From positions 3,957-67,956 of the forward strand of contig JAZQWA010000075.1 of NCBI GenBank assembly GCA_045632065.1: a stretch of 64,000 nt of DNA. The letters run 5' to 3'. The notes beneath the pieces are model-generated. The model had not been told where the DNA came from. It saw only the letters and a list, made by a program, of their open reading frames with translations, and made no database searches. Origin of the DNA: Eubacteriales bacterium (GTDB taxonomy: Bacteria; Bacillota; Clostridia; Oscillospirales; CAG-272). The translations under genes were made by a program, and so were the position numbers. Positions 29,204 to 37,528 of this stretch are shown here, piece after piece. Every line of letters begins with the position of its first letter. The stretch's first letter is position 1.

Positions 29204-30061
29204 TTAGATAGTTCCTGTGACTGTCAATACTGCAACACCGGGGGTGGTTGTAACAACACCTGTATCAGTATCTCTGATATAGGTTGCAGCAGGTACGCTG
29301 ATTGCGCCGTTTAGAGTAGTAAACTGACCGGTTTCCTCGTCGTATGTGTAGCCTGTTCCAAGCACGAGAGGCTGACTGTTGAGGTTAACCGTAATATTGC
29401 TGAGAGTGGGATTAAAAATATCAGTAACTATCAGATTGTCTGTTGCTACTACGGGAATATTACCTGCATTCTGAATTATAAAGGTATAGGTTACCTCGCT
29501 ACCGCAGGTAACAGTTTCAGGACAAACTGCTTTTGCGATAGAAAGCAAGGGCTCATCTCTTGTGGGAACCTGTGCGCTATCACCAAGCTCGTCACAAATA
29601 TCGTCGGCATTAGCAGTCACGTAATTATATATTGCGGAACCCGCAGAGAGAGGTGCAAATTCGTTTGCCCTTACTTCGTAGAGCAGAGTTGCGACTCCAC
29701 CGGCAGGTACGTCAATGCCCGAAATTACAAGAGGAGGACCTGCATTTACTACCGGAGCAGGCTGCAAAACACCGTTCAGATAATAAATTATAGAGCCGTT
29801 AACGTAGGTTAAAGGAACTACGTTAATTCCTCCGTCAAGAGCGTAGATGCCGAGATCGTCAGTAAGCGTAATGTTATTTTTATCTACGGTATCACTATTT
29901 ACCAAAGTGACTGCATAAACTATATTGTCACCGGGACCGTAGTCTGTTGTTACAGCGGTTTTTGTTAAACTTACGCGTGTAATAACCTCTCCTTCCGTAA
30001 CGTTTGAGTTGGTAACTCTGCCGCCAAAGGAAAGAGAAGCCTGATTGTAAAAGGTTGCCAT
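29204..30061 (-). CDS. tandem DUF11-like (conserved repeat domain) beta-sandwich protein, no signal peptide
   Basis: ORF 29204..30148. ATG 30061 (MATFYNQASLSF) is preceded by AAGGAG. There are two repeats of the pattern L.K.A.....GD.V.Y...V.N.G. The Thr/Val/Asn-rich composition suggests beta structure. Confidence 0.55.
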   Translation of the reverse strand: MATFYNQASLSFGGRVTNSNVTEGEVITRVSLTKTAVTTDYGPGDNIVYAVTLVNSDTVDKNNITLTDDLGIYALDGGINVVPLTYVNGSIIYYLNGVLQPAPVVNAGPPLVISGIDVPAGGVATLLYEVRANEFAPLSAGSAIYNYVTANADDICDELGDSAQVPTRDEPLLSIAKAVCPETVTCGSEVTYTFIIQNAGNIPVVATDNLIVTDIFNPTLSNITVNLNSQPLVLGTGYTYDEETGQFTTLNGAISVPAATYIRDTDTGVVTTTPGVAVLTVTGTI

Positions 30062-30141
30062 TTTAATCTCCTTGTTTTTTGGGGGAATAATCCCCTCGCT
30101 ACAGTTTATGCAAAAAACAGAATAGTTGACATATTTAGATA

Positions 30142-30170
30142 TTGACAATTTTGCTTTTGTGTGGTAGAAT
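30142..30170 (+). promoter_or_regulatory. promoter of tRNA-Leu
   Basis: TTGACA (30142-30147), 17-nt spacer, then TAGAAT (30165-30170) with a TGG extended -10. The tRNA 5' end lies 13 nt downstream. Confidence 0.6.
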
Positions 30171-30182
30171 ATAAAAAGTTAT

Positions 30183-30266
30183 GCGGGCGTGGCGGAATTG
30201 GCAGACGCGCCAGACTTAGGATCTGGTGGTTACCCCGTGCAGGTTCAAGTCCTGTCGCCCGCACCA
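30183..30266 (+). tRNA. tRNA-Leu, anticodon UAG (class II, long variable arm, encoded CCA)
   Basis: Acceptor GCGGGCG/CGCCCGC; D-arm GCG-GAATTGGCAGA-CGC; anticodon stem CCAGA/TCTGG with loop CTTAGGA; T-arm GCAGG-TTCAAGT-CCTGT; terminal ACCA. Confidence 0.9.
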
Positions 30267-30308
30267 AGCAAGGAGATGGAGTCTTTTGATTCCATCTCCT
30301 TGCTTTTT
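30267..30308 (+). terminator. rho-independent terminator directly after the tRNA
   Basis: AGCAAGGAGATGGA / TCCATCTCCTTGCT 14-bp stem followed by TTTTT. Confidence 0.8.
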
Positions 30309-30405
30309 AGAAGCGAAAGGACTTGAAGTAGGAGCCGTGTAGAAAACTCTTCCGGTGGACGAGTTTTCCCGGCGAATGACTGACGAGCGCAGTTCGCGAG
30401 GAGAA

Positions 30406-30427
30406 TCAAGTCCTGTCGCCCGCACCA
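30406..30427 (+). repeat. direct repeat copy 2 of the tRNA-Leu 3' end (att-like)
   Basis: TCAAGTCCTGTCGCCCGCACCA is identical over 22 nt to 30245-30266. No matching 5' acceptor strand lies upstream, so this is not a second tRNA. Confidence 0.85.
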
Positions 30428-30433
30428 AAAAGC

Positions 30434-30456
30434 AGTTCCCCAAAGGGAACTTTTTT
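30434..30456 (+). terminator. terminator hairpin following repeat copy 2
   Basis: AGTTCCC-CAAA-GGGAACT followed by TTTTT. Confidence 0.65.
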
Positions 30457-30621
30457 GTTTGGGGACGGACTTGAACACTGTTAATTGCTGTGCAATTACG
30501 GGTTCGCCGACGACTCGCAAGCATAGTCGTCTCGGGCGTTAGGCAAGCCTTACTTCCGATACTCCTTGTTTTGCTCGGGCACTTCGGTAAAAACAGTTAT
30601 CAACTATTTTTACCTCGCTTA

Positions 30622-30637
30622 CCTGTCGCCCGCACCA
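30622..30637 (+). repeat. direct repeat copy 3 of the tRNA-Leu 3' end (att-like, 16 nt)
   Basis: CCTGTCGCCCGCACCA is identical to 30251-30266. Confidence 0.8.
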
Positions 30638-30644
30638 AAAAAAT

Positions 30645-30680
30645 GACTGTAATTTTGATACAAAATTGCAGTCTTTTTTT
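30645..30680 (+). terminator. terminator hairpin following repeat copy 3
   Basis: GACTGTAATTTT / AAAATTGCAGTC stem (one G-T pair) followed by TTTTTTT. Confidence 0.65.
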
Positions 30681-30682
30681 AT

Positions 30683-30866
30683 CCAAACCGCAGGTTTGGT
30701 ATATCATCACCGCACGAAGTGTGGTGGATATCATCAGCCCATTGAGCTGTATATCATCACTCATCAGAGTGTATTCTCCTGCGGTTTAATGATATACAAT
30801 GCTTCGCATTGATGATATACTCGTCCAAAAGCGAGATATACTCGTTTTCGGACGGATGATATACAC
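30683..30866. repeat. phased array of the 9-12 nt motif (GT)ATATCATCA(C): three forward copies then three to four inverted copies
   Basis: Forward cores lie at 30701-30709, 30728-30736 and 30751-30759. Reverse cores (TGATGATAT) lie at 30787-30795 (1 mismatch), 30810-30818 (perfect) and 30854-30862 (1 mismatch), with a partial GATATAC at 30833-30841. Spacings are 21-27 bp. Small unrelated hairpins fill the spacers. Confidence 0.8.
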
Positions 30867-30993
30867 TTTCTACGAAAGTGATAAATTTGCATGCCTTTTT
30901 ATTTTTATCAGCAAAAAGCCAATAGTTCATTTTATCCCCTTATCGTTCAATTTATGGGATATCGTTCAGTTTTTGCTTTTCGTAAGGTTGTTA

Positions 30994-31022
30994 TTGATTT
31001 TGGTTAAGGTATGTGATATAAT
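30994..31022 (+). promoter_or_regulatory. sigma-A type promoter of the GNAT gene
   Basis: TTGATT (30994-30999), 17-nt spacer, then TATAAT (31017-31022) with an upstream TGTG. Confidence 0.55.
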
Positions 31023-31063
31023 AAACTCAATTATAAATAAGAATTTAATGAGGTCATTTATAT

Positions 31064-31669
31064 ATGAACGCAAACTTTGAAATTAGTGAATTGGTCATTG
31101 AAACAGAAAGATTGGTATTACGTCCGTTTAGGCAATCCGACCTACACGATTTCAATGAATACGCATCTGTCCCGGGTGTAGGCGAGATGGCAGGTTGGAA
31201 ACATCACGAAACAATTGAAAAAACGCAGGAAATCTTGGATATGTTTATTAAAGAAGATAAAACCTTTGCAATTGTTTTCAAAAAGAATAACAAAGTAATC
31301 GGTTCTCTCGGTGTTGAAAAATATGGGCTTGAAGACAAATTGACCGAATTTAATGGCTATTATGGCCGTGAGATTGGTTACGTATTATCGAAGGATTACT
31401 GGGGCAAAGGCATTATGCCTGAAGCAGTGGGGGGCGTAATTGACTATCTGTTCAACGATTTGAATCTGGACTTTTTAACATGCGGATACTATGATTTTAA
31501 CGATCAATCTAAAAGAGTTCAGGAAAAGTGTGGCTTTAAACCTTACCGAAAGCTTGTTATGGATACTCGGTTGGGAACAAAAGAACCCGGCGTCCTAAAT
31601 ATGCTTATCAATCCTAACAAGAATATTTCGCTTGTGTTCTCCCATCCCGAAACGTTGATTTACAAATAA
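31064..31669 (+). CDS. GNAT family N-acetyltransferase (RimJ/RimL-like)
   Basis: The N-terminus TERLVLRPFRQSD is typical of the RimJ/L subgroup. The acetyl-CoA loop is YWGKGIMPEA. Confidence 0.85.
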   Translation: MNANFEISELVIETERLVLRPFRQSDLHDFNEYASVPGVGEMAGWKHHETIEKTQEILDMFIKEDKTFAIVFKKNNKVIGSLGVEKYGLEDKLTEFNGYYGREIGYVLSKDYWGKGIMPEAVGGVIDYLFNDLNLDFLTCGYYDFNDQSKRVQEKCGFKPYRKLVMDTRLGTKEPGVLNMLINPNKNISLVFSHPETLIYK

Positions 31670-31803
31670 CCGTAAATCCCAATTTATCGGTGAACTTGGT
31701 TAAAATAAAAAATGTATCCATTTAATTGTTTTGCACCTATAACGCTAAAACTTGCACCCACTCGAAAATGGTATCAAAATTTTAGATCACTCACAAATAA
31801 AAC

Positions 31804-31832
31804 AACCCCGACTCGATCGGGGTTATTTTATT
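31804..31832 (+). terminator. rho-independent terminator downstream of the GNAT gene
   Basis: AACCCCGA-CTCGA-TCGGGGTT followed by ATTTTATTT. Confidence 0.65.
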
Positions 31833-31855
31833 TGATATGGACTACGCAGCGCAAA

Positions 31856-31876
31856 TCAAGTTTTTTGCCCGCACCA
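31856..31876 (+). repeat. degenerate fourth copy of the tRNA-Leu 3' end
   Basis: TCAAGTTTTTTGCCCGCACCA compared with TCAAGTCCTGTCGCCCGCACCA. The outer TCAAGT and GCCCGCACCA blocks are conserved and the middle is diverged. Confidence 0.4.
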
Positions 31877-32046
31877 TAGCCTTGATTTTAGCTGTAAAAA
31901 GTGGTATAATCTAAACGATAAGTAGTGTGATTTTAAAAAACGAAAAAATACTTAAATCAACACATTATGCAATTGTTGTTGTTCAATTTTTCTCTTGAGG
32001 TTGGTAAAATATAGACACAATAAAACAACCGAAAAGGAGAAACAAA

Positions 32047-33595: not shown

Positions 33596-33631
33596 TTTGC
33601 TTCGAAAAAACTGATTATCATGAGTGTTTAG

Positions 33632-33660
33632 TTGACAGAAGAAAAAATTTGTGATATAAT
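33632..33660 (+). promoter_or_regulatory. sigma-A type promoter of the membrane-bound XRE regulator gene
   Basis: TTGACA (33632-33637), 17-nt spacer, then TATAAT (33655-33660) with an upstream TGTG. Confidence 0.55.
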
Positions 33661-33710
33661 AGCACAAGATTATAATACAGCGATGAGCTGTTTGAATTTG
33701 GAGAACTTTT

Positions 33711-34310
33711 ATGAAGGATATAAAAGGCATAGTTGCCAAAAATATATGCGAACTTCGTCAATTAAACAATATGACGCAGCTTGAATTAGCTGAAAAATTA
33801 AACTATTCGGATAAAGCGATATCCAAGTGGGAAAGGGCTGAATCCTGTCCCGATATTTCCGTGCTTGTTCAAATTGCCGAGATGTTCGGAGTAACGGTAG
33901 ACTATCTTGTTAATGAAGATAATAAAAAGCCCGATTTAAATAAGGGCACATCGGATGAGGGCAGGTATAATCGCAGAGCGATTGCATATATTTCGGAAAG
34001 CTGCGCTTGGATAATTGCTATTGTTGCATTTATTATTACGACCTTGATTTTAAAACAAACGACTTTTCAATTCCTTTATTTTGCCTACGCATTGCCCGTG
34101 GCGATGATTGTTAAGCTCGTGTTTAACTCTGTATGGTTTAATCCAAGACATAATTATCTCATCATATCCATTTTGATGTGGTCGCTTCATGCAGCGATAC
34201 ATATTACGTTTTTGTATTTTGGAATTGACGTCGCCCTTATCTATATAATAGGTGTTGCAGGGCAGATCGTTATAGTTCTTTGGTCTTTCATCTCAAAACC
34301 TAAAAAGTAA
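33711..34310 (+). CDS. XRE-family HTH regulator fused to a C-terminal four-TM domain
   Basis: HTH_3 segment LRQLNNMTQLELAEKLNYSDKAISKWERAESCPDISVLVQIAEMFGVTVDYL, followed by hydrophobic helices. Confidence 0.8.
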   Translation: MKDIKGIVAKNICELRQLNNMTQLELAEKLNYSDKAISKWERAESCPDISVLVQIAEMFGVTVDYLVNEDNKKPDLNKGTSDEGRYNRRAIAYISESCAWIIAIVAFIITTLILKQTTFQFLYFAYALPVAMIVKLVFNSVWFNPRHNYLIISILMWSLHAAIHITFLYFGIDVALIYIIGVAGQIVIVLWSFISKPKK

Positions 34311-34323
34311 ATAATAGTTAGAA

Positions 34324-34361
34324 AAAATCCTCGTTTTCATTGGAAAAACGAGGATTTTTTG
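34324..34361 (+). terminator. rho-independent terminator
   Basis: AAAATCCTCGTTTTC / GAAAAACGAGGATTTT stem followed by a T-run. Confidence 0.75.
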
Positions 34362-34506
34362 TTGCTTTCTACGGGCGGTAGAGCGGTAGAGCTAAAACTC
34401 TACTGCTCGAAAACAAGATATAGACCTGCATGGAAGAACAGTCGATTGACTTTCTTTGACAAATTAAGATATAATTGAGACAATGATTTAAAAAAGGAGT
34501 AAAAAA

Positions 34507-35433
34507 ATGACCAAAGAGATACCGATTTTCTTTTCAACCGATGATAACTATATACCGTTTTTGGATGTCGCAATTTCGTCTTTGATTTTAAATGCGTCAA
34601 AGGAATTTGAATATAGAATTGTTGTTTTGAACACAGGACTTAATGCGGAGAACGTTAGTAAGGTTAAGCAAAACGAAAAGCCAGGCTTTAAAATTGATTT
34701 TGTTGATATTTCCGAGGACGTTGAGAGGATAAAGACGAGATTGAAGAACGTTTATCACTTCTCAGTTGTTACGTACTATCGACTTTTTATCGCATCGCTT
34801 TTCCCTGAGTATGACAAGGTAATATATTTGGATTGCGACCTGGTGATTTTAGGCGATATATCCAAGCTTTATCATACCGAGCTTGCTGATAATATCTTAG
34901 CAGCGGCGCCCGAGCAGTTCGTTCAGAATACAAAAGAGTTCAGATTATATGCAAAAAATGCGCTTGGCGTTGATCCCGATGGATATGTTAACGCTGGAGT
35001 GCTTCTTATGAATCTTAAGGAATTCAGAAAAAATGAGATAGAAGAAAAATTCGTTCATCTTATAACCGAGTATGATTTCGATTTGCTTGATCCTGACCAG
35101 GCATATTTAAATTATCTATGCTTGGGCAAGATTCACGTTCTTCCAAATGGATGGAATAAGGAGCCTATGCCCCTTGCCTGCGAGGGTGAAAAGAACATAG
35201 TGCATTATGCTTTGTATAAGAAGCCTTGGCAGTATGACGACGTAATGGATGGCGAATATTTTTGGAGTTATGCAAAAAAATCGCCATTTTACGATGAAAT
35301 ATGTCAAAGAAAAGATAATTTCAGTGAGTCTGAAAGGGCGCAGAAGGAAGCCACAGCCCACGAAATTCTTGAGCACGCCTTGAGGATTATTGACTCAGAG
35401 GATACCTTCTCAAAACAACTGTGTAATAAATGA
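34507..35433 (+). CDS. glycosyltransferase family 8
   Basis: AAAGGAG RBS. IFFSTDDNYIPFL N-terminal motif, DxD in YLDCDLV, and NAGVLLMNL. Confidence 0.85.
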   Translation: MTKEIPIFFSTDDNYIPFLDVAISSLILNASKEFEYRIVVLNTGLNAENVSKVKQNEKPGFKIDFVDISEDVERIKTRLKNVYHFSVVTYYRLFIASLFPEYDKVIYLDCDLVILGDISKLYHTELADNILAAAPEQFVQNTKEFRLYAKNALGVDPDGYVNAGVLLMNLKEFRKNEIEEKFVHLITEYDFDLLDPDQAYLNYLCLGKIHVLPNGWNKEPMPLACEGEKNIVHYALYKKPWQYDDVMDGEYFWSYAKKSPFYDEICQRKDNFSESERAQKEATAHEILEHALRIIDSEDTFSKQLCNK

Positions 35434-35443
35434 GGATCGTGGT

Positions 35444-36274
35444 ATGGAAAAATCAGAGCATAAGTTAGAGCTTCTAAAGCGAATTGAAGAGCTTGAAAAA
35501 CAACAGCTTTGGCATCTCGACGTAGAGGATGACCCTGAAACCTATCCGCTTATGCCGGATCGGGTTGATTATCTGAATGAAAAGCTCTCAAGCAAAATAA
35601 AAAATCGAATCGCAAATTTCCTTGGCACGAGATTCTTCGAGGGAATGATTGCCAAGCGTCAGTTAATTATAAAGGAAGTCCGCGGAATTGAAAACTTTAC
35701 CGCGGTAAGCGGTGGCAAGATTGTTACCTGCAATCATTTCAGTATAAGTGATAATTACGCTGTCTGGAGATCGTTGCGCGATCATATGGGCGGTAAAATG
35801 TTATACAAAATTATCCGTGAGGGAAATTATACAAATCCTCCGAAGCCTTTTGGCATGATGATGCGACATTGTAACACACTGCCTCTTTCCAGCCAGACGT
35901 CTACTATGAAGAAATTTCTTCGAGCTGTTAAGGTGCTGCTTGAGCGCGGAGAAACTATTTTGATCTATCCAGAGCAGGGAATGTGGTGGAATTATCGCAA
36001 GCCTAAGCCCATGCAGGACGGGGCGTTTACACTTGCCATCAGAAATAAAACTCCCATAATACCTATTTTTATAACCATGGAGGACAGCGACTTCCTTGAT
36101 GATGACGGATTTTTTGTACAGGAGTATACGGTACATATTTTACCTGCTATATATCCTGACGAAACGCTGACAAACGTGGAGGCAAGAGACAAAATGAAAA
36201 GGGAGAACTACGGGGCTTGGGTAAAGGTTTACGAGGACTTTTATAAAACGCCTCTTGTTTATTCAGAACAATGA
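35444..36274 (+). CDS. lysophospholipid (PlsC-like) acyltransferase family protein
   Basis: HX4D motif NHFSISD and YPEQG (PEG-type) motif. The gene starts 10 nt after the GT8 stop. Confidence 0.7.
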   Translation: MEKSEHKLELLKRIEELEKQQLWHLDVEDDPETYPLMPDRVDYLNEKLSSKIKNRIANFLGTRFFEGMIAKRQLIIKEVRGIENFTAVSGGKIVTCNHFSISDNYAVWRSLRDHMGGKMLYKIIREGNYTNPPKPFGMMMRHCNTLPLSSQTSTMKKFLRAVKVLLERGETILIYPEQGMWWNYRKPKPMQDGAFTLAIRNKTPIIPIFITMEDSDFLDDDGFFVQEYTVHILPAIYPDETLTNVEARDKMKRENYGAWVKVYEDFYKTPLVYSEQ

Positions 36275-36843
36275 AGCTGTATCTTTCAATCATAGGCATT
36301 TCAATGGCGATAATATCCGCTGTGAATATACTGCTTGAGACTGCCTCGTGGTATTATATAATTATAGCGGTGGTTTGGTGTACTGCGCTTCAATTTGCTC
36401 TTGACGGCGCTATTGCTATTATCATAAACAAAATGCCTGACAGGTGGTTTGGCATAGATAATCCGTTTTATGAGGTTTCAGATAGAGAAAGAGAGTTATA
36501 CAAGATACTGAAGGTAAGGCTGTGGAAGGATAAGGTGTGGGAACTTGGTGGTCTTGGTGGATTCAGTAAGAGAAAACTCAACGAGCCGAACAATCCTGAA
36601 TACATTGAAAAGTTCATTATTGAATGTAACAAGGGCGTGCTTACGCACAGACTTGCATATCCTATCGGCTTTTTGGCGATGCTCACATTGCCAAATGCTT
36701 GCGCGATTACAATAGCGCTCCCTGTTGCCATTGTAAATTTGTTTTTATGTATCCTGCCGACACTTGCTCTTCGATATAACACTCCTATGCTTAAGTCAGT
36801 GCTAAAAAGACTAAAAAAACGAAAATTAAGTGAAATTTCATAG
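36271..36843 (+). CDS. membrane protein, possibly glycosyl-4,4'-diaponeurosporenoate acyltransferase-like
   Basis: ATGA overlap with the upstream acyltransferase. It has two N-terminal and two C-terminal TM helices flanking RLWKDKVWELGG.. and HRLAYP segments. The family resemblance is from memory only. Confidence 0.4.
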   Translation: MKLYLSIIGISMAIISAVNILLETASWYYIIIAVVWCTALQFALDGAIAIIINKMPDRWFGIDNPFYEVSDRERELYKILKVRLWKDKVWELGGLGGFSKRKLNEPNNPEYIEKFIIECNKGVLTHRLAYPIGFLAMLTLPNACAITIALPVAIVNLFLCILPTLALRYNTPMLKSVLKRLKKRKLSEIS

Positions 36844-36908
36844 CAGAATTCTAAAAGGCGACGCAATGAGTGTTGCCTTTTATGTTTTGCTATCTGGAAA
36901 ATAAAAAA

Positions 36909-36971
36909 ATGACAAGTATACTTGGCAGTAATATAATATGGCTTTGACAAGAAAACTTGTCATGATATAAA
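36909..36971 (+). promoter_or_regulatory. tandem promoters overlapped by two TGACAAG/CTTGTCA inverted repeats (operator candidates)
   Basis: IR1 is TGACAAGTATACTTGGCA (36910-36927), overlapping a -35-like ATGACA, with TATAAT at 36932-36937. IR2 is TGACAAGAAAACTTGTCA (36945-36962), overlapping TTGACA (36944-36949), with TATAAA at 36966-36971. Confidence 0.45.
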
Positions 36972-36987
36972 ACATACGAGGTTACTT

Positions 36988-37308
36988 ATGGAAAAAGAAA
37001 TCGTTTTAGAATTGAGCCGAAAGGAAAACGAAGGCAGACATGACGAAATGGAAAAGAATGCGTATGGCGGCGCTTCAAAGGTCGGAATGCTAGTAGGCGG
37101 CATTGTTTGCGTGGCGTTAGTTCTTTTGTCGGAATTTCTCTTTAAAATTCCTGAAATAGGACTTGCCGCATGGCTTGTTTATTTTGCTATGCAGGGGAGT
37201 CATTCTATTAGCCTGTATGCGCAGTTGAAAAAACATAGCAGGCTTATATATGGAATAGTTTATATTGCTTTTTCGTTCCTTTTTCTTGTTGCTTTATGTA
37301 TGATGTAG
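36988..37308 (+). CDS. small three-TM membrane protein (106 aa)
   Basis: GAGG RBS. Charged N-terminus followed by hydrophobic helices. Paired with the downstream 68-aa HTH protein. Confidence 0.6.
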   Translation: MEKEIVLELSRKENEGRHDEMEKNAYGGASKVGMLVGGIVCVALVLLSEFLFKIPEIGLAAWLVYFAMQGSHSISLYAQLKKHSRLIYGIVYIAFSFLFLVALCMM

Positions 37309-37321
37309 TTGGTGGAAGAAA

Positions 37322-37528
37322 ATGGATGAAAAGCTTGTGTTAAAAAACAATTTAAAGGCTATAAGATCAGAGAAAAACATCTCTCAGCACCAGCTTGCAG
37401 ATATGGTCGGCGTGTCAAGAAACACCATCAGCTCTATAGAAACAGGACAGTTTAATCCAACTGCAAAATTAGCTCTGATTTTGTGTATTGCGCTTGATAA
37501 AAGGTTTGAGGATGTGTTTTATTTTTAA
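37322..37528 (+). CDS. small XRE/Cro-type HTH transcriptional regulator (68 aa)
   Basis: NLKAIRSEKNISQHQLADMVGVSRNTISSIETGQFNPT is a canonical HTH_3 segment. Confidence 0.85.
   Translation: MDEKLVLKNNLKAIRSEKNISQHQLADMVGVSRNTISSIETGQFNPTAKLALILCIALDKRFEDVFYF

Follow-up and report, generated by a model that had tools for sequence, protein, structure and literature searches.

PF05635/TIGR02436 four-helix-bundle proteins are common in bacterial genomes; S23p of the 23S rRNA intervening sequences belongs to this family, and DGR Avd is related to it. To our knowledge, no function outside DGR Avd has been assigned to the family since its discovery in 23S rRNA intervening sequences, and we know of no record of these proteins as sequence-specific DNA binders. 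The intervening sequences that encode S23p/PF05635, for example in Coxiella burnetii, lie inside 23S rRNA helix 45, carry the ORF between inverted repeats and are removed from the RNA (PMC4990558). The DNA module described here resembles them in its protein family, its association with stable RNA, its pairable inverted repeats and its patchy “selfish element” distribution (PMC4990558). However, it lies past the terminator, downstream of the gene, its inverted repeat does not enclose the ORF, and that repeat is itself a multi-site array.

In the parC/ParR system of plasmid R1 and in the omega-repressor heptads (Inc18), as in the module, iterons in direct and inverted blocks are placed on or by the promoter of a gene for a small protein, their reader (a putative one in the module), which acts in cis and also in trans on other copies. 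The likeness to the omega-repressor heptads extends to contiguous 7-bp repeats, which we found at the distant PF05635 loci L197 and L212. In contrast to these systems, whose readers are ribbon-helix-helix proteins, the reader proposed here is a four-helix bundle; the module has no partition ATPase, is chromosomal and located behind stable-RNA genes, and its iterons are split by covarying hairpins of variable length.

Three groups of recombination-related or repetitive elements are also comparable. Lambda-like attP arms similarly occupy about 200 bp by a tRNA-linked junction and have two opposed repeat sets around a centre, but the module has no integrase gene, flanking direct repeats are missing at most loci, and its centre is no crossover point, given a junction some 45 bp beyond the module's edge; we also know of no hairpin spacers in attP arms. 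With integron attC sites it shares a cassette-linked imperfect inverted repeat, a fold kept over sequence, a possible reading as folded DNA and tandem single-gene cassettes, whereas it has neither R/L core boxes (GTTRRRY) nor IntI, its cassettes carry their own promoter and terminator, and its pairing is local, with hairpins within each half and not half-to-half. REP elements occur as hundreds of dispersed sites with a conserved stem sequence. The REP/BIME/REPIN mosaics associated with RAYT resemble the module in being palindromes of alternating orientation with conserved flanks near gene 3' ends, and in having a dedicated protein gene flanked by copies; in the module, however, a linear 11-mer is conserved while the stems vary freely, the copies examined are confined to stable-RNA 3' flanks, and there is no HUH transposase. 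We know of no described element with this design: conserved linear sites, freely varying but compensated DNA hairpins, two strand-mirrored halves, and a position fixed to the nucleotide between a stable-RNA terminator and the promoter of an accessory gene.

The window, i.e., the whole 64-kb stretch of DNA analysed here, contains at 30681-30884 a repeat array, in our reading a double-stranded DNA element and not a gene, which comprises three forward and three to four reverse copies of GTATATCATCA with small hairpins between them (Table 1). The forward sites are GTATATCATCAC at 30699-30710 and, in identical form, at 30749-30760, and GGATATCATCAG at 30726-30737; the reverse sites match TATATCATCA with at most one mismatch at 30787-30796, 30810-30819 and 30854-30863. 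Every full motif copy reported in the first-pass annotation of this DNA is present at its place, while the partial copy GATATAC at 30833 exists but lies inside the loop of the long hairpin 30820-30855 and is no free-standing site. The 10-bp inverted repeat reported around the forward block, AAACCGCAGG (30685-30694) and CCTGCGGTTT (30778-30787), is exact. Its left copy represents the 5' arm and loop of the Y hairpin and can also pair with the right copy, Y'; the Y and Y' pairing encloses the F half.

The motif density exceeds that of shuffled sequences. The 10-mer, with at most one mismatch, has six matches inside 164 bp of the module, and in shuffles 6.3 matches are expected per whole 64 kb; the observed window total of 23 was reached in 0 of 100 shuffles. 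The spacer hairpins described at the outset were borne out as well. Spacer minimum free energies are −4.6 to −10.2 kcal/mol, against −0.7 to −2.4 in shuffles. The 200-nt module folded as single-stranded DNA gives −45.6 kcal/mol (z = −7.8) for the + strand and −42.9 kcal/mol (z = −8.2) for the − strand, and no shuffle equals either value. The window copy has the full family layout (T-run-ATCC, Y, at least three forward sites, Y', at least three reverse sites, (T/G)TGAT) and scores E = 1.6e-36 with the nhmmer profile from alignment A1, in which the window itself is row 1. It is the only copy in the window and is located at the sole tRNA gene there.

Table 1. Features of the module and its cassette in the window (positions of the window).
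Feature	Position	Strand	Description
tRNA-Leu, anticodon TAG	30183..30266	+	ARAGORN; Rfam tRNA 58.6 bits; stable-RNA gene anchoring the locus
Second tRNA-Leu 3'-end copy	30397..30428	+	~23 nt identical; own terminator 30434-30451
Third tRNA 3'-end copy	30622..30638	+	CCTGTCGCCCGCACCA+A; left cassette junction, by comparison with L362
Bidirectional intrinsic terminator	30639..30680	.	A-run, 13-bp stem GACTGTAATTTTG/CAAAATTGCAGTC (30645-30673), T7
Y hairpin	30681..30699	+	conserved ATCC, then CCAAACC-GCA-GGTTTGG
F half	30699..30771	+	three forward 11-mers and hairpin spacers
F1 GTATATCATCA	30699-30709	+	then hairpin CACCGCAC-GAA-GTGTGGTG
F2 GGATATCATCA	30726-30736	+	then hairpin CAGCCC..GAGCTG
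F3 GTATATCATCA	30749-30759	+	then hairpin CACTC-ATCA-GAGTG
Centre TATTCT and Y' CCTGCGGTTT	30772..30787	+	Y' is the partner of the Y 5' arm
R half	30787..30880	-	motifs read GTATATCAT.. on the - strand
R1	30787-30797	-	then hairpin CAATGC-TTC-GCATTG
R2	30810-30820	-	then long hairpin 30820-30855 with GAGATATAC in the loop
R3	30854-30864	-	then hairpin CACTTTC-TAC-GAAAGTG 30864-30880
GATAAA (preceded by GT: GTGATA)	30880..30885	+	place of the conserved TTGATT/GTGATT box; degenerate here
Cassette promoter block	30930..31063	+	WATCGTTCA repeats 30941-30975; -35 TTGATT 30994-30999
GNAT acetyltransferase	31064..31669	+	cassette cargo; Pfam PF13302, E = 2.4e-26
Conserved cassette 3' region	31670..31795	+	ends ..TTTTAGATCACTCACA, the right junction; same right end in L142

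The module heads a GNAT cassette of about 1.2 kb, with junctions set by alignment A2, which is absent in three close relatives: their orthologous tRNA-Leu loci (histidine kinase 90%, 82% and 71% identical) have no module. At the position of the right junction, L362 has a tRNA fragment ..CCCGCACCA directly ahead of the same AATAAAA terminator. The tRNA-Leu gene and two more copies of its 3' end were confirmed, and the second copy marks the boundary of an earlier small insertion. The proposed link between the array and an att-like tRNA fragment is real but indirect, the module being the tRNA-proximal head of a small inserted cassette. The same terminator accompanies the module in L142 and L159, and the cassette promoter block, with an extended −10 TGTGATATAAT at 31012-31022 and a leader containing ..AAATAAGAATTTA.., is common to cassettes in L001, L142, L186 and L366. 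An exact-protein look-up returned no record for the GNAT, GltX and XRE proteins, and a PADLOC anti-phage search gave no match for PF05635 or the window cassette proteins.

The array is one copy of an undescribed DNA module of about 185 bp, present in more than 100 gut and rumen Clostridia. A scan with a three-copy pattern matched at least 120 genome loci, nearly all from Clostridia (MAGs), and in more than 100 other genomes, the motif, its order, the hairpins and the long-range inverted repeat are found again and covary. The +++--- layout occurs in 62 of the 111 motif clusters, with spacings of about 25, 23, 38, 23 and 27 bp. Because hairpin length varies, the site spacing across the family ranges from 19 to 40 bp, and the phasing of about two helical turns suggested for the window is not conserved. 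The number of units per half varies from 3 to 5, and the hairpin units form a shuffled mosaic; they reassort by recombination between the repeats themselves (L139 compared with L187), and the reassorted halves are therefore uninformative on the position of a breakpoint.

The surroundings of the module follow a fixed order: a stable-RNA gene ending in ...CCA, an A-run, the terminator, T7-ATCC, the module, TTGATT (−35) and an accessory gene, the first downstream ORF, which is co-directional. The upstream part of this order (...CCA, A5-6, terminator, T7, ATCC) is found in essentially all copies, and all examined copies stand behind stable-RNA genes or cassette ends. About 55 bp ahead of the module is a tmRNA or a tRNA (more than 15 identities); the host stable RNAs are tRNA, tmRNA and 5S rRNA, the latter two confirmed by Rfam. 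The accessory genes include those for GNAT, MazG, XRE, sigma factors and PF05635. On the promoter side, the last hairpin is followed by TTGATT, with a perfect TATAAT 16-17 nt further on in 19 of 66 loci. In the subfamily of the window, the module ends in GTGATA without a −10 box and the GNAT promoter is located 110 bp further downstream, and direct promoter control is therefore doubtful here.

Half-modules were found as well: the R half occurs on its own in L396, behind a 5S rRNA gene, and in phage L027 (IMGVR_UViG_3300018494_004896), shortly before terS, and R-half-only copies lie directly on promoters. The phage half-module has five copies, is placed between replication genes (PriCT-2/AAA_25 primase-helicase, RusA) and terS-terL-portal, and, relative to the genes on either side, runs antisense to the G..A-loop strand. 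Viral sequences scanned exhaustively for three exact copies yielded this phage only, plus prophage-flank copies. A two-copy pattern in viral contigs was dropped, as it was swamped by chance and tandem-repeat matches; a three-copy pattern yielded mostly giant-virus tandem repeats, and the one real phage case emerged only with a stricter pattern. When 30600-31060 was compared with phages by distant blastn, the sole match was the GNAT promoter block, in a bacterial fragment that is mislabelled, the plasmid search (PLSDB) with the same segment gave no match, and a literature search on the motif returned only primers and unrelated sequences.

Compensatory changes, sought across homologues in an alignment of 49 modules (A1), are abundant and maintain every spacer as a hairpin. 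In this alignment, 91.0% of cells are paired against 74.8% in shuffles (0 of 500 shuffles reach the observed value) and 33-41% in slid controls. Two-sided change is seen at 33 of 50 pairs, and double changes (320 cells) are about 12-fold more frequent than one-sided, wobble-type ones (27 cells). Helix 1, the Y hairpin, is paired in 98.5% and includes three covarying pairs. The module is thus under clear purifying and compensatory selection, and is therefore not the relic that had been considered. Read on the tRNA-sense strand, 72 F-half loops are of the G..A type and one is T..C, while in the R half 64 are T..C and none is G..A. Variants of the forward motif are not matched by covarying ones in the reverse motif (column 79:205 has U-G 29, U-A 8, C-G 3), and for this reason a rod model, in which RNAalifold pairs F1:R3, F2:R2 and F3:R1, was rejected as a selected feature. 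A box C/D or K-turn reading of UGAUGA was also rejected, as the D box is absent. As to an invertible promoter acting via Y/Y', the F half was clearly inverted in no module among the examples viewed by eye.

The commonest neighbour family of the module is the PF05635/TIGR02436 four-helix-bundle gene, with 12 blastp hits from 11 of the 79 modules and starts about 60 nt past the module; in L186, a single such gene is located downstream of both modules. Conversely, at least three motif copies lie within 330 nt upstream of 67 of the 69 PF05635 genes, and all 67 of 67 show agreement between motif class and protein cluster (ATATCATCA in 37, ATGTAATCA/ATGGAATCA in 30), the 6-8 motif copies of a module all changing together. 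Behind tRNA terminators there are also two more distant PF05635 genes, whose arrays consist of other heptads, likewise set in two inverted blocks. Since the 11-mer changes together with the neighbouring PF05635 protein, this protein is its likely binding partner. The concordance between class and clade could stem from physical linkage and common descent alone: there was essentially one major switch of motif class (class 1 versus class 2/3) in addition to the two distant clades. The class-specific residues (N49Q, G51P, E62K, L65R, G73S, I104T and K111E) are inseparable from phylogeny. The match of clade and motif suggests a possible function, putative class-specific iteron binding, for an orphan family. 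No PF05635 gene was found in the 64-kb window by tblastn or hmmsearch, so that in the window the module stands solo, with GNAT as its cargo, and about 67 of the 79 class-1 modules of the genome set have no adjacent PF05635 gene. Of the earlier proposals, the general idea that opposed phased repeats represent a putative protein-binding array of iteron type is best supported, and the array is read as used in trans because a partner gene is absent nearby. The partners then named (Rep, ParR, Int/Xis) did not emerge, as no replication, partition or recombinase family recurs within 4 kb of the 79 modules.

We tentatively favour, at a little short of an even chance, the explanation that the module is a multi-site docking or operator array for the PF05635 four-helix-bundle protein, acting in the window in trans. 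The 11-mers, at least three per half, would serve as docking sites, and the palindromic spacers would fold out as DNA hairpins, so that their variable length is removed and the 11-mers are brought side by side. The R half, which in many copies ends exactly at the TTGATT −35 box, may control the promoter behind it as an operator. A 10-bp stem of its own, Y:Y', closes the F half, which directly adjoins the bidirectional terminator of the stable-RNA gene and may provide the other side of a symmetric nucleoprotein boundary, separating the highly transcribed tRNA operon from the accessory genes that follow. The head of the small cassettes that accumulate directly 3' of tRNA, tmRNA and 5S rRNA genes consists of terminator, module and promoter. 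In this scheme, we infer the binding of the 11-mer by PF05635, the hairpin extrusion in DNA, and promoter control and insulation as the outcome, whereas the supply of the protein to the window copy in trans is assumed. At 5-9 bp, the stems are short for a cruciform to extrude spontaneously, which is a point against hairpin folding in duplex DNA, and the docking model does not explain the restriction of the element to stable-RNA 3' flanks.

In a rather unlikely but substantial alternative, non-autonomous cassettes that insert at a CCA|A junction behind tRNA genes would have the module as their arm-type or end-recognition region, possibly used as folded single-stranded DNA in the manner of integron attC sites or IS200/IS605 ends, with a recombinase supplied in trans and PF05635 perhaps as an accessory factor. 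The distance from the module start to the junction of a cassette missing in close relatives is about 45 bp, repeats of the tRNA 3' end flank the cassettes of the window (10 nt) and L161 (16 nt), tandem cassettes, each with its own terminator and module, occur in L142, L186, L190 and L197, and many modules are preceded by a mere tRNA 3' fragment or by conserved pseudo-ends in ..CA or are located at contig ends. With its inverted 3+3 layout, the module is similar to attP arms or multi-site transposon ends, and C-GNA-G loops are typical of stable DNA hairpins. However, the window encodes no tyrosine integrase or Xis, no integrase or transposase recurs within 4 kb of the 79 modules, the module edges (ATCC, TGATT) have no target-site duplication, and the R-half-only copies on promoters do not suit a mobility site. 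Few loci have downstream tRNA-core repeats (5 of 57 genome loci, 1 of 32 PF05635 loci), for which reason an att-flanked integrative element was rejected as a general rule. A broader version, according to which module and protein would form an unrecognised mobile cassette system homing to stable-RNA 3' flanks, with PF05635 reading folded “hairpin-iteron” ends for cassette capture and exchange without a conventional integrase, appears doubtful.

The strong hairpin covariation, the very negative folding z-scores and the many GNRA-like F-half loops in tRNA sense would also suit a structured ncRNA or two convergent RNAs, such as a read-through tRNA 3' trailer binding a protein or sRNA at the UAUAUCAUCA linkers; tRNA 3' trailers act as sponges in E. 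coli. We consider the RNA reading, also raised at the outset as a multi-hairpin ncRNA, improbable: the module sits after a strong intrinsic terminator and ahead of a promoter, the loop bias is mirrored so that no single transcript would have favourable loops throughout, one-sided changes are scarce, the phage array is antisense to the G..A-loop strand, and Rfam 15 cmscan of 29500-32000 (E ≤ 1) gave only the tRNA and chance miRNA matches on the terminator. Mirrored loops, rare wobble, variable spacing and the lack of forward-reverse covariation argue for putatively folded or extruded DNA over one RNA. A selfish structured repeat of REP/BIME or MITE type, kept without function by spread and gene conversion, would account for the many copies, the mosaic of hairpin units with 3 to 5 units per half and the patchy presence among relatives, but seems quite improbable, as position and orientation to the terminator and −35 box are fixed to the nucleotide, hairpin compensation and concerted motif-protein change imply a reader and selection, and the 64-kb window has only one copy, at its sole tRNA gene. 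Least probable of all, in our estimate, is an iteron origin, plasmid-type centromere or phage pac/cos site kept in the chromosome or mimicked for a helper element. Two opposed iteron blocks surround a centre, the half-module of L027 occupies the usual pac/cos place between replication genes and terS, and at the left edge, beside a T7 run, TTATCCA agrees with 7 of 9 DnaA-box positions; the module centre is not AT-rich. Against it, Rep, Par (parM/parR or parA/parB-like) and terminase genes are absent near chromosomal copies (Pfam on 20 window ORFs; 79 modules, 4 kb), only the one phage and prophage-flank copies emerged from the viral scan, the context is chromosomal with no plasmid match, and the placement behind many different tRNA operons would make an active origin or pac site a hazard.

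Regardless of its function, the module flags a hot spot of small accessory genes behind tRNA genes and can serve as a marker for variable cassettes in MAGs; such hot spots may account for assembly breaks there. If the mobile-system reading is true, it would explain why, throughout bacteria, PF05635 genes are found within or next to genes for rRNA and tRNA, and if the cassettes excise, the circular junction would read ..ACTCACA|AAAAAATGACTG..

Scanning one genome per species with three phased copies of ATATCATC as the query retrieved at least 120 loci, so the motif clusters for which the first-pass annotation proposed looking in other genomes do exist. The matches listed are nearly all from Clostridia MAGs (Acutalibacteraceae, Oscillospiraceae, "Eubacteriales", and Christensenellaceae) obtained from rumen, gut, and faecal samples. 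Among them, 62 of 111 motif clusters have exactly three forward (F1–F3) and then three reverse (R1–R3) copies, spaced by about 25, 23, 38, 23, and 27 bp, and most of the remaining clusters differ from this layout by one unit. No Rfam family corresponds to the array, a plasmid search returned no match to it, and a literature search found the motif in no paper; to our knowledge, this type of conserved cis element is previously undescribed. Another tandem array, with a 24-nt period (GGATGATATCC + gcccctacagc..; L141 1537-1645, L167 7-92, and L195 from MAG RUG14839), has the motif partly in common without any of the module architecture.

In the window, a profile built from 49 aligned modules detects a single copy, situated at the only tRNA gene. 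The motif copies reported in the first pass are present: the 10-mer (up to one mismatch) occurs six times within 164 bp, compared with about six expected per whole 64 kb, and no shuffle reached the observed window total. The enclosing inverted repeat (Y/Y') is likewise exact, and the array does follow the third copy of the tRNA-Leu 3' end, beginning directly past the bidirectional terminator that lies between them; each 3'-end copy has a terminator-like hairpin behind it. A partial reverse copy noted at 30833 exists, but within the loop of one long hairpin (30820-30855). Folded as DNA, the 200-nt segment gives z = -7.8 and -8.2 against shuffles on the two strands.

Coordinates of the array and its surroundings in the window
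Feature	Position	Remarks
tRNA-Leu	30183-30266	
Further copies of the tRNA-Leu 3' end (two)	30397-30428; 30622-30638	
Bidirectional terminator after the third copy of the tRNA-Leu 3' end	30645-30673 (stem)	A-run, 13-bp stem, T7
Forward motif copies	30699; 30749; 30726	GTATATCATCA at 30699 and 30749; variant GGATATCATCA at 30726
Reverse motif copies	30797; 30820; 30864	ends of copies
Y/Y' inverted repeat	30685-30694 / 30778-30787	exact
Module-bearing segment	30639-31795	from alignment to L362

Written in the orientation of the window's forward strand, the consensus starts from a stable-RNA gene ending in CCA, followed by A5-6, a terminator hairpin, T7, and ATCC. Next come the Y hairpin (e.g., CCAAGCC-GNA-GGCTTGG) and the F half, in which F1, F2, and F3 are each followed by a hairpin; the centre is (T/C)AT plus a few bases, and after Y' the R half repeats the scheme with R1, R2, and R3, ending in (T/G)TGATT. 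All spacers are hairpins whose sequence varies by locus, with folding energies of -4.6 to -10.2 kcal/mol versus -0.7 to -2.4 when shuffled. Across the 49 modules, standard pairs fill 91.0% of the alignment cells versus 74.8% in shuffled sequences and 33-41% with the partner slid. Covariation in the spacer hairpins, for which the first pass proposed a test, is present: 33 of 50 pairs have changed on both sides, and none of five measures was reached by any of 500 shuffles. The Y 5' arm and loop also pair with Y', immediately before R1, and this pairing, which encloses the F half, is 98.5% intact with three covarying pairs. Hairpin-plus-motif units are reordered between the closely related modules of L139 and L187, and the tandem modules of L186 (65-226 and 881-1031) have identical R halves and different F halves; therefore, the arrays evolve as units are shuffled or as the repeated 11-mers undergo unequal exchange.

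Four observations all argue for a module of folded DNA rather than a single RNA. On the tRNA-sense strand, F-half loops are G..A in 72 cases and T..C in one, while R-half loops are T..C in 64 cases and never G..A; the favourable C-GNA-G/GNNA loops of each half therefore fall on the strand reading GTATATCATCA, and no single transcript of the module has favourable loops throughout. Double compensatory changes outnumber one-sided ones about 12-fold (320 versus 27 cells), and G-U pairs make up only about 1-2%, a scarcity unusual for RNA; a need for both DNA strands to pair, or a bias against G-T, would predict it. RNAalifold does pair the motifs themselves (F1:R3, F2:R2, and F3:R1), with no covariation at the variable positions of forward versus reverse motifs: F2 is usually GT.. 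opposite ..GC in R2, and F3 often GTATCTC opposite GATAT in R1. Finally, the inter-motif distance ranges from 19 to 40 bp across the family because hairpin length varies, which does not fit the two-turn phasing of about 22 bp first proposed; the linear duplex has no conserved helical phasing, but with the hairpins extruded the geometry does not vary. Given the mirrored loops, the rare wobble pairs, and the placement between an intrinsic terminator and a promoter, the multi-hairpin ncRNA offered in the first pass is very improbable, for all its well-supported stems.

Most modules in the 60 loci scanned lie about 55 bp behind the final tRNA of their operon (His, Glu, Tyr, Leu, Pro, Arg, Ser, Thr, Gln, Trp, Val, Asn, and Cys are among those preceding), two follow a tmRNA of confirmed identity, and the orientation relative to the stable-RNA gene is constant. 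The element occurs also at an rRNA operon end (L396, 1241-1500), where 5S rRNA, a terminator, T-run-ATCC, and a short hairpin precede an R half only, with a class-2 motif, and a PF05635 gene. Many other copies, including that of the window, are preceded by nothing but a tRNA 3' fragment or a conserved pseudo-end, ..CA plus an A-run. The first ORF past the module is almost always co-directional, starting 60-250 nt on. As cargo, the modules have varied genes, for GNAT, MazG-like, XRE, sigma factor, and membrane proteins. The last hairpin continues into TTGATT; 16-17 nt beyond this, 19 of 66 loci have a perfect TATAAT, so that the module end there supplies the -35 box of a consensus promoter.

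Of the neighbour families, the largest is a protein of 114-119 aa that starts about 60 nt past the module (12 blastp hits, which come from 11 modules since both L186 modules have one gene downstream in common). It belongs to PF05635 ("23S rRNA-intervening sequence protein") and TIGR02436 ("four helix bundle protein"), and its closest solved structure is the uncharacterised protein 2RLD. One module (L127) has GTATGTAATCA at all six sites, and its neighbour protein is an outlier with 55-62% identity, the others being mutually 79-95% identical. When the protein alignment was used to scan metagenomes, 80 loci were retrieved; of 69 usable genes, 67 are preceded by three or more motif copies in the 330 nt upstream. 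Protein cluster 1 goes with ATATCATCA (37/37), and the array-bearing proteins of the other clusters with ATGTAATCA or ATGGAATCA (30/30), with zero exceptions and an otherwise identical architecture. This concordance could arise from linkage and common descent. All copies in a module change in concert, however, and therefore need a common reader, for which the adjoining gene is the obvious and likely candidate. Two more distant PF05635 genes lie directly behind tRNA operon terminators and have different, contiguous heptads upstream, each set in two inverted blocks without hairpin spacers: ATTCATT x5 / AATGAAT x4 at L197 3850-4086, and TTCACTN x4 / AGTGAA x2 at L212 (minus strand, ahead of the gene whose start is at strand coordinate 5179).

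Three orthologous loci (L362, L366, and L367), located through homologues of the adjacent histidine kinase with 90%, 82%, and 71% identity, have the same gltX - kinase - DUF11 - tRNA-Leu backbone, running on in L362 and L366 to M13 peptidase - S20, with an HD gene too in L362. The module is absent from all three, L367 stopping at a contig edge soon after the tRNA. The variable region lies between tRNA-Leu and the peptidase gene, and the extra window segments in the alignment to L362 are each bounded by tRNA 3'-end copies. The module-bearing segment comprises an A-run, terminator, T7, ATCC, module, WATCGTTCA-repeat promoter, GNAT gene, and a stretch of about 110 nt that ends in ..TTTTAGATCACTCACA; its place is precisely between a ..CCA end and the AATAAAA terminator that in L362 comes after a tRNA fragment. 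From this alignment, the window module heads an inserted cassette. At a tRNA-Leu(CAG) locus of another genome (L142), two tandem cassettes, MazG-like then GNAT, have the same terminator, module, promoter block, and right end.

The best-supported mechanism, which we hold tentatively and at somewhat less than even chances, is that PF05635 four-helix-bundle proteins would dock on the module as an operator platform, with the spacers folded out as DNA hairpins while it is read, and that the module would form the boundary between a stable-RNA operon and an accessory-cassette promoter. The main rival, a recombination or end-recognition site for cassette mobility, would suit the inserted and tandem cassettes; classical direct repeats of the tRNA core surround cassettes in a minority of cases (5/57 and 1/32), and no integrase, transposase, Rep, or Par family recurs among the module neighbours. 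We consider this rival rather unlikely, and it is not mutually exclusive with the docking mechanism. The first-pass suggestion of a cis site used in trans was right in spirit, but its partners (Rep, ParR, and Int/Xis) are unsupported, as no such family recurs near modules.

Viral sequences, scanned exhaustively, yielded a single phage, which is represented by three contigs (L027, L351, and L352). At L027 8609-8760, a five-copy one-directional half-module of R type (GCATATCATCA), with GCA-loop hairpins on the strand opposite the phage genes, is followed by TTGATTT and a terminator; replication genes (primase-helicase and RusA) and a small Cys-rich ORF flank it on one side and terS-terL-portal on the other, and no PF05635 gene was found in the roughly 19 kb of this phage that the search covered. 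The promoter-side half is thus able to occur by itself, and the phage copy leaves some small probability to a packaging site or an origin; an origin, centromere, or pac function for the module has at best a slight chance. A purely selfish repeat is hardly more credible beside the motif-protein concordance. The window has no PF05635 gene, and its module is therefore a solo copy.

Another conserved block stands at the head of several cassettes irrespective of the hairpin module (window 30930-31063, L001 500-650, L142, L186, and L366 13160-13300). It comprises WATCGTTCA repeats (two or three, spaced by about 19 bp), a promoter TTGATT-17-TGTGATATAAT, and a conserved leader ..AAATAAGAATTTR.., and has 78% identity to MT836745, in which the gene under its control is a different small GNAT gene. 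That record (L001, MT836745.1, "Bacteriophage sp.", unverified) has genes for RNase Y, RecA, and an FtsK-like protein; evidently it is no phage but a piece of bacterial chromosome that carries a tRNA-linked mini-cassette.

The variable region of the window contains a second insertion (33600-37450; XRE-HTH, GT8 glycosyltransferase, acyltransferase, CrtO-like acyltransferase, and DUF6442) of lower GC (0.36-0.41) that is not in L362, where the M13 peptidase gene comes immediately after the 194-aa gene. Gene-less segments of 100-200 bp lie between successive tRNA-Leu 3'-end copies (window 30304-30400 and 30452-30621; L366 12780-12880; L161 downstream of the PF05635 cassette). They have a common block, GGACTTGAAGTAGGAGC...CCGGTGGAC...GCGCAGTTCGCG...GAA, then a tRNA T-arm/acceptor copy to whose T-arm GGACTTGAA is complementary, and look like arm remnants of a separate tRNA-integrating element family or a small structured element.
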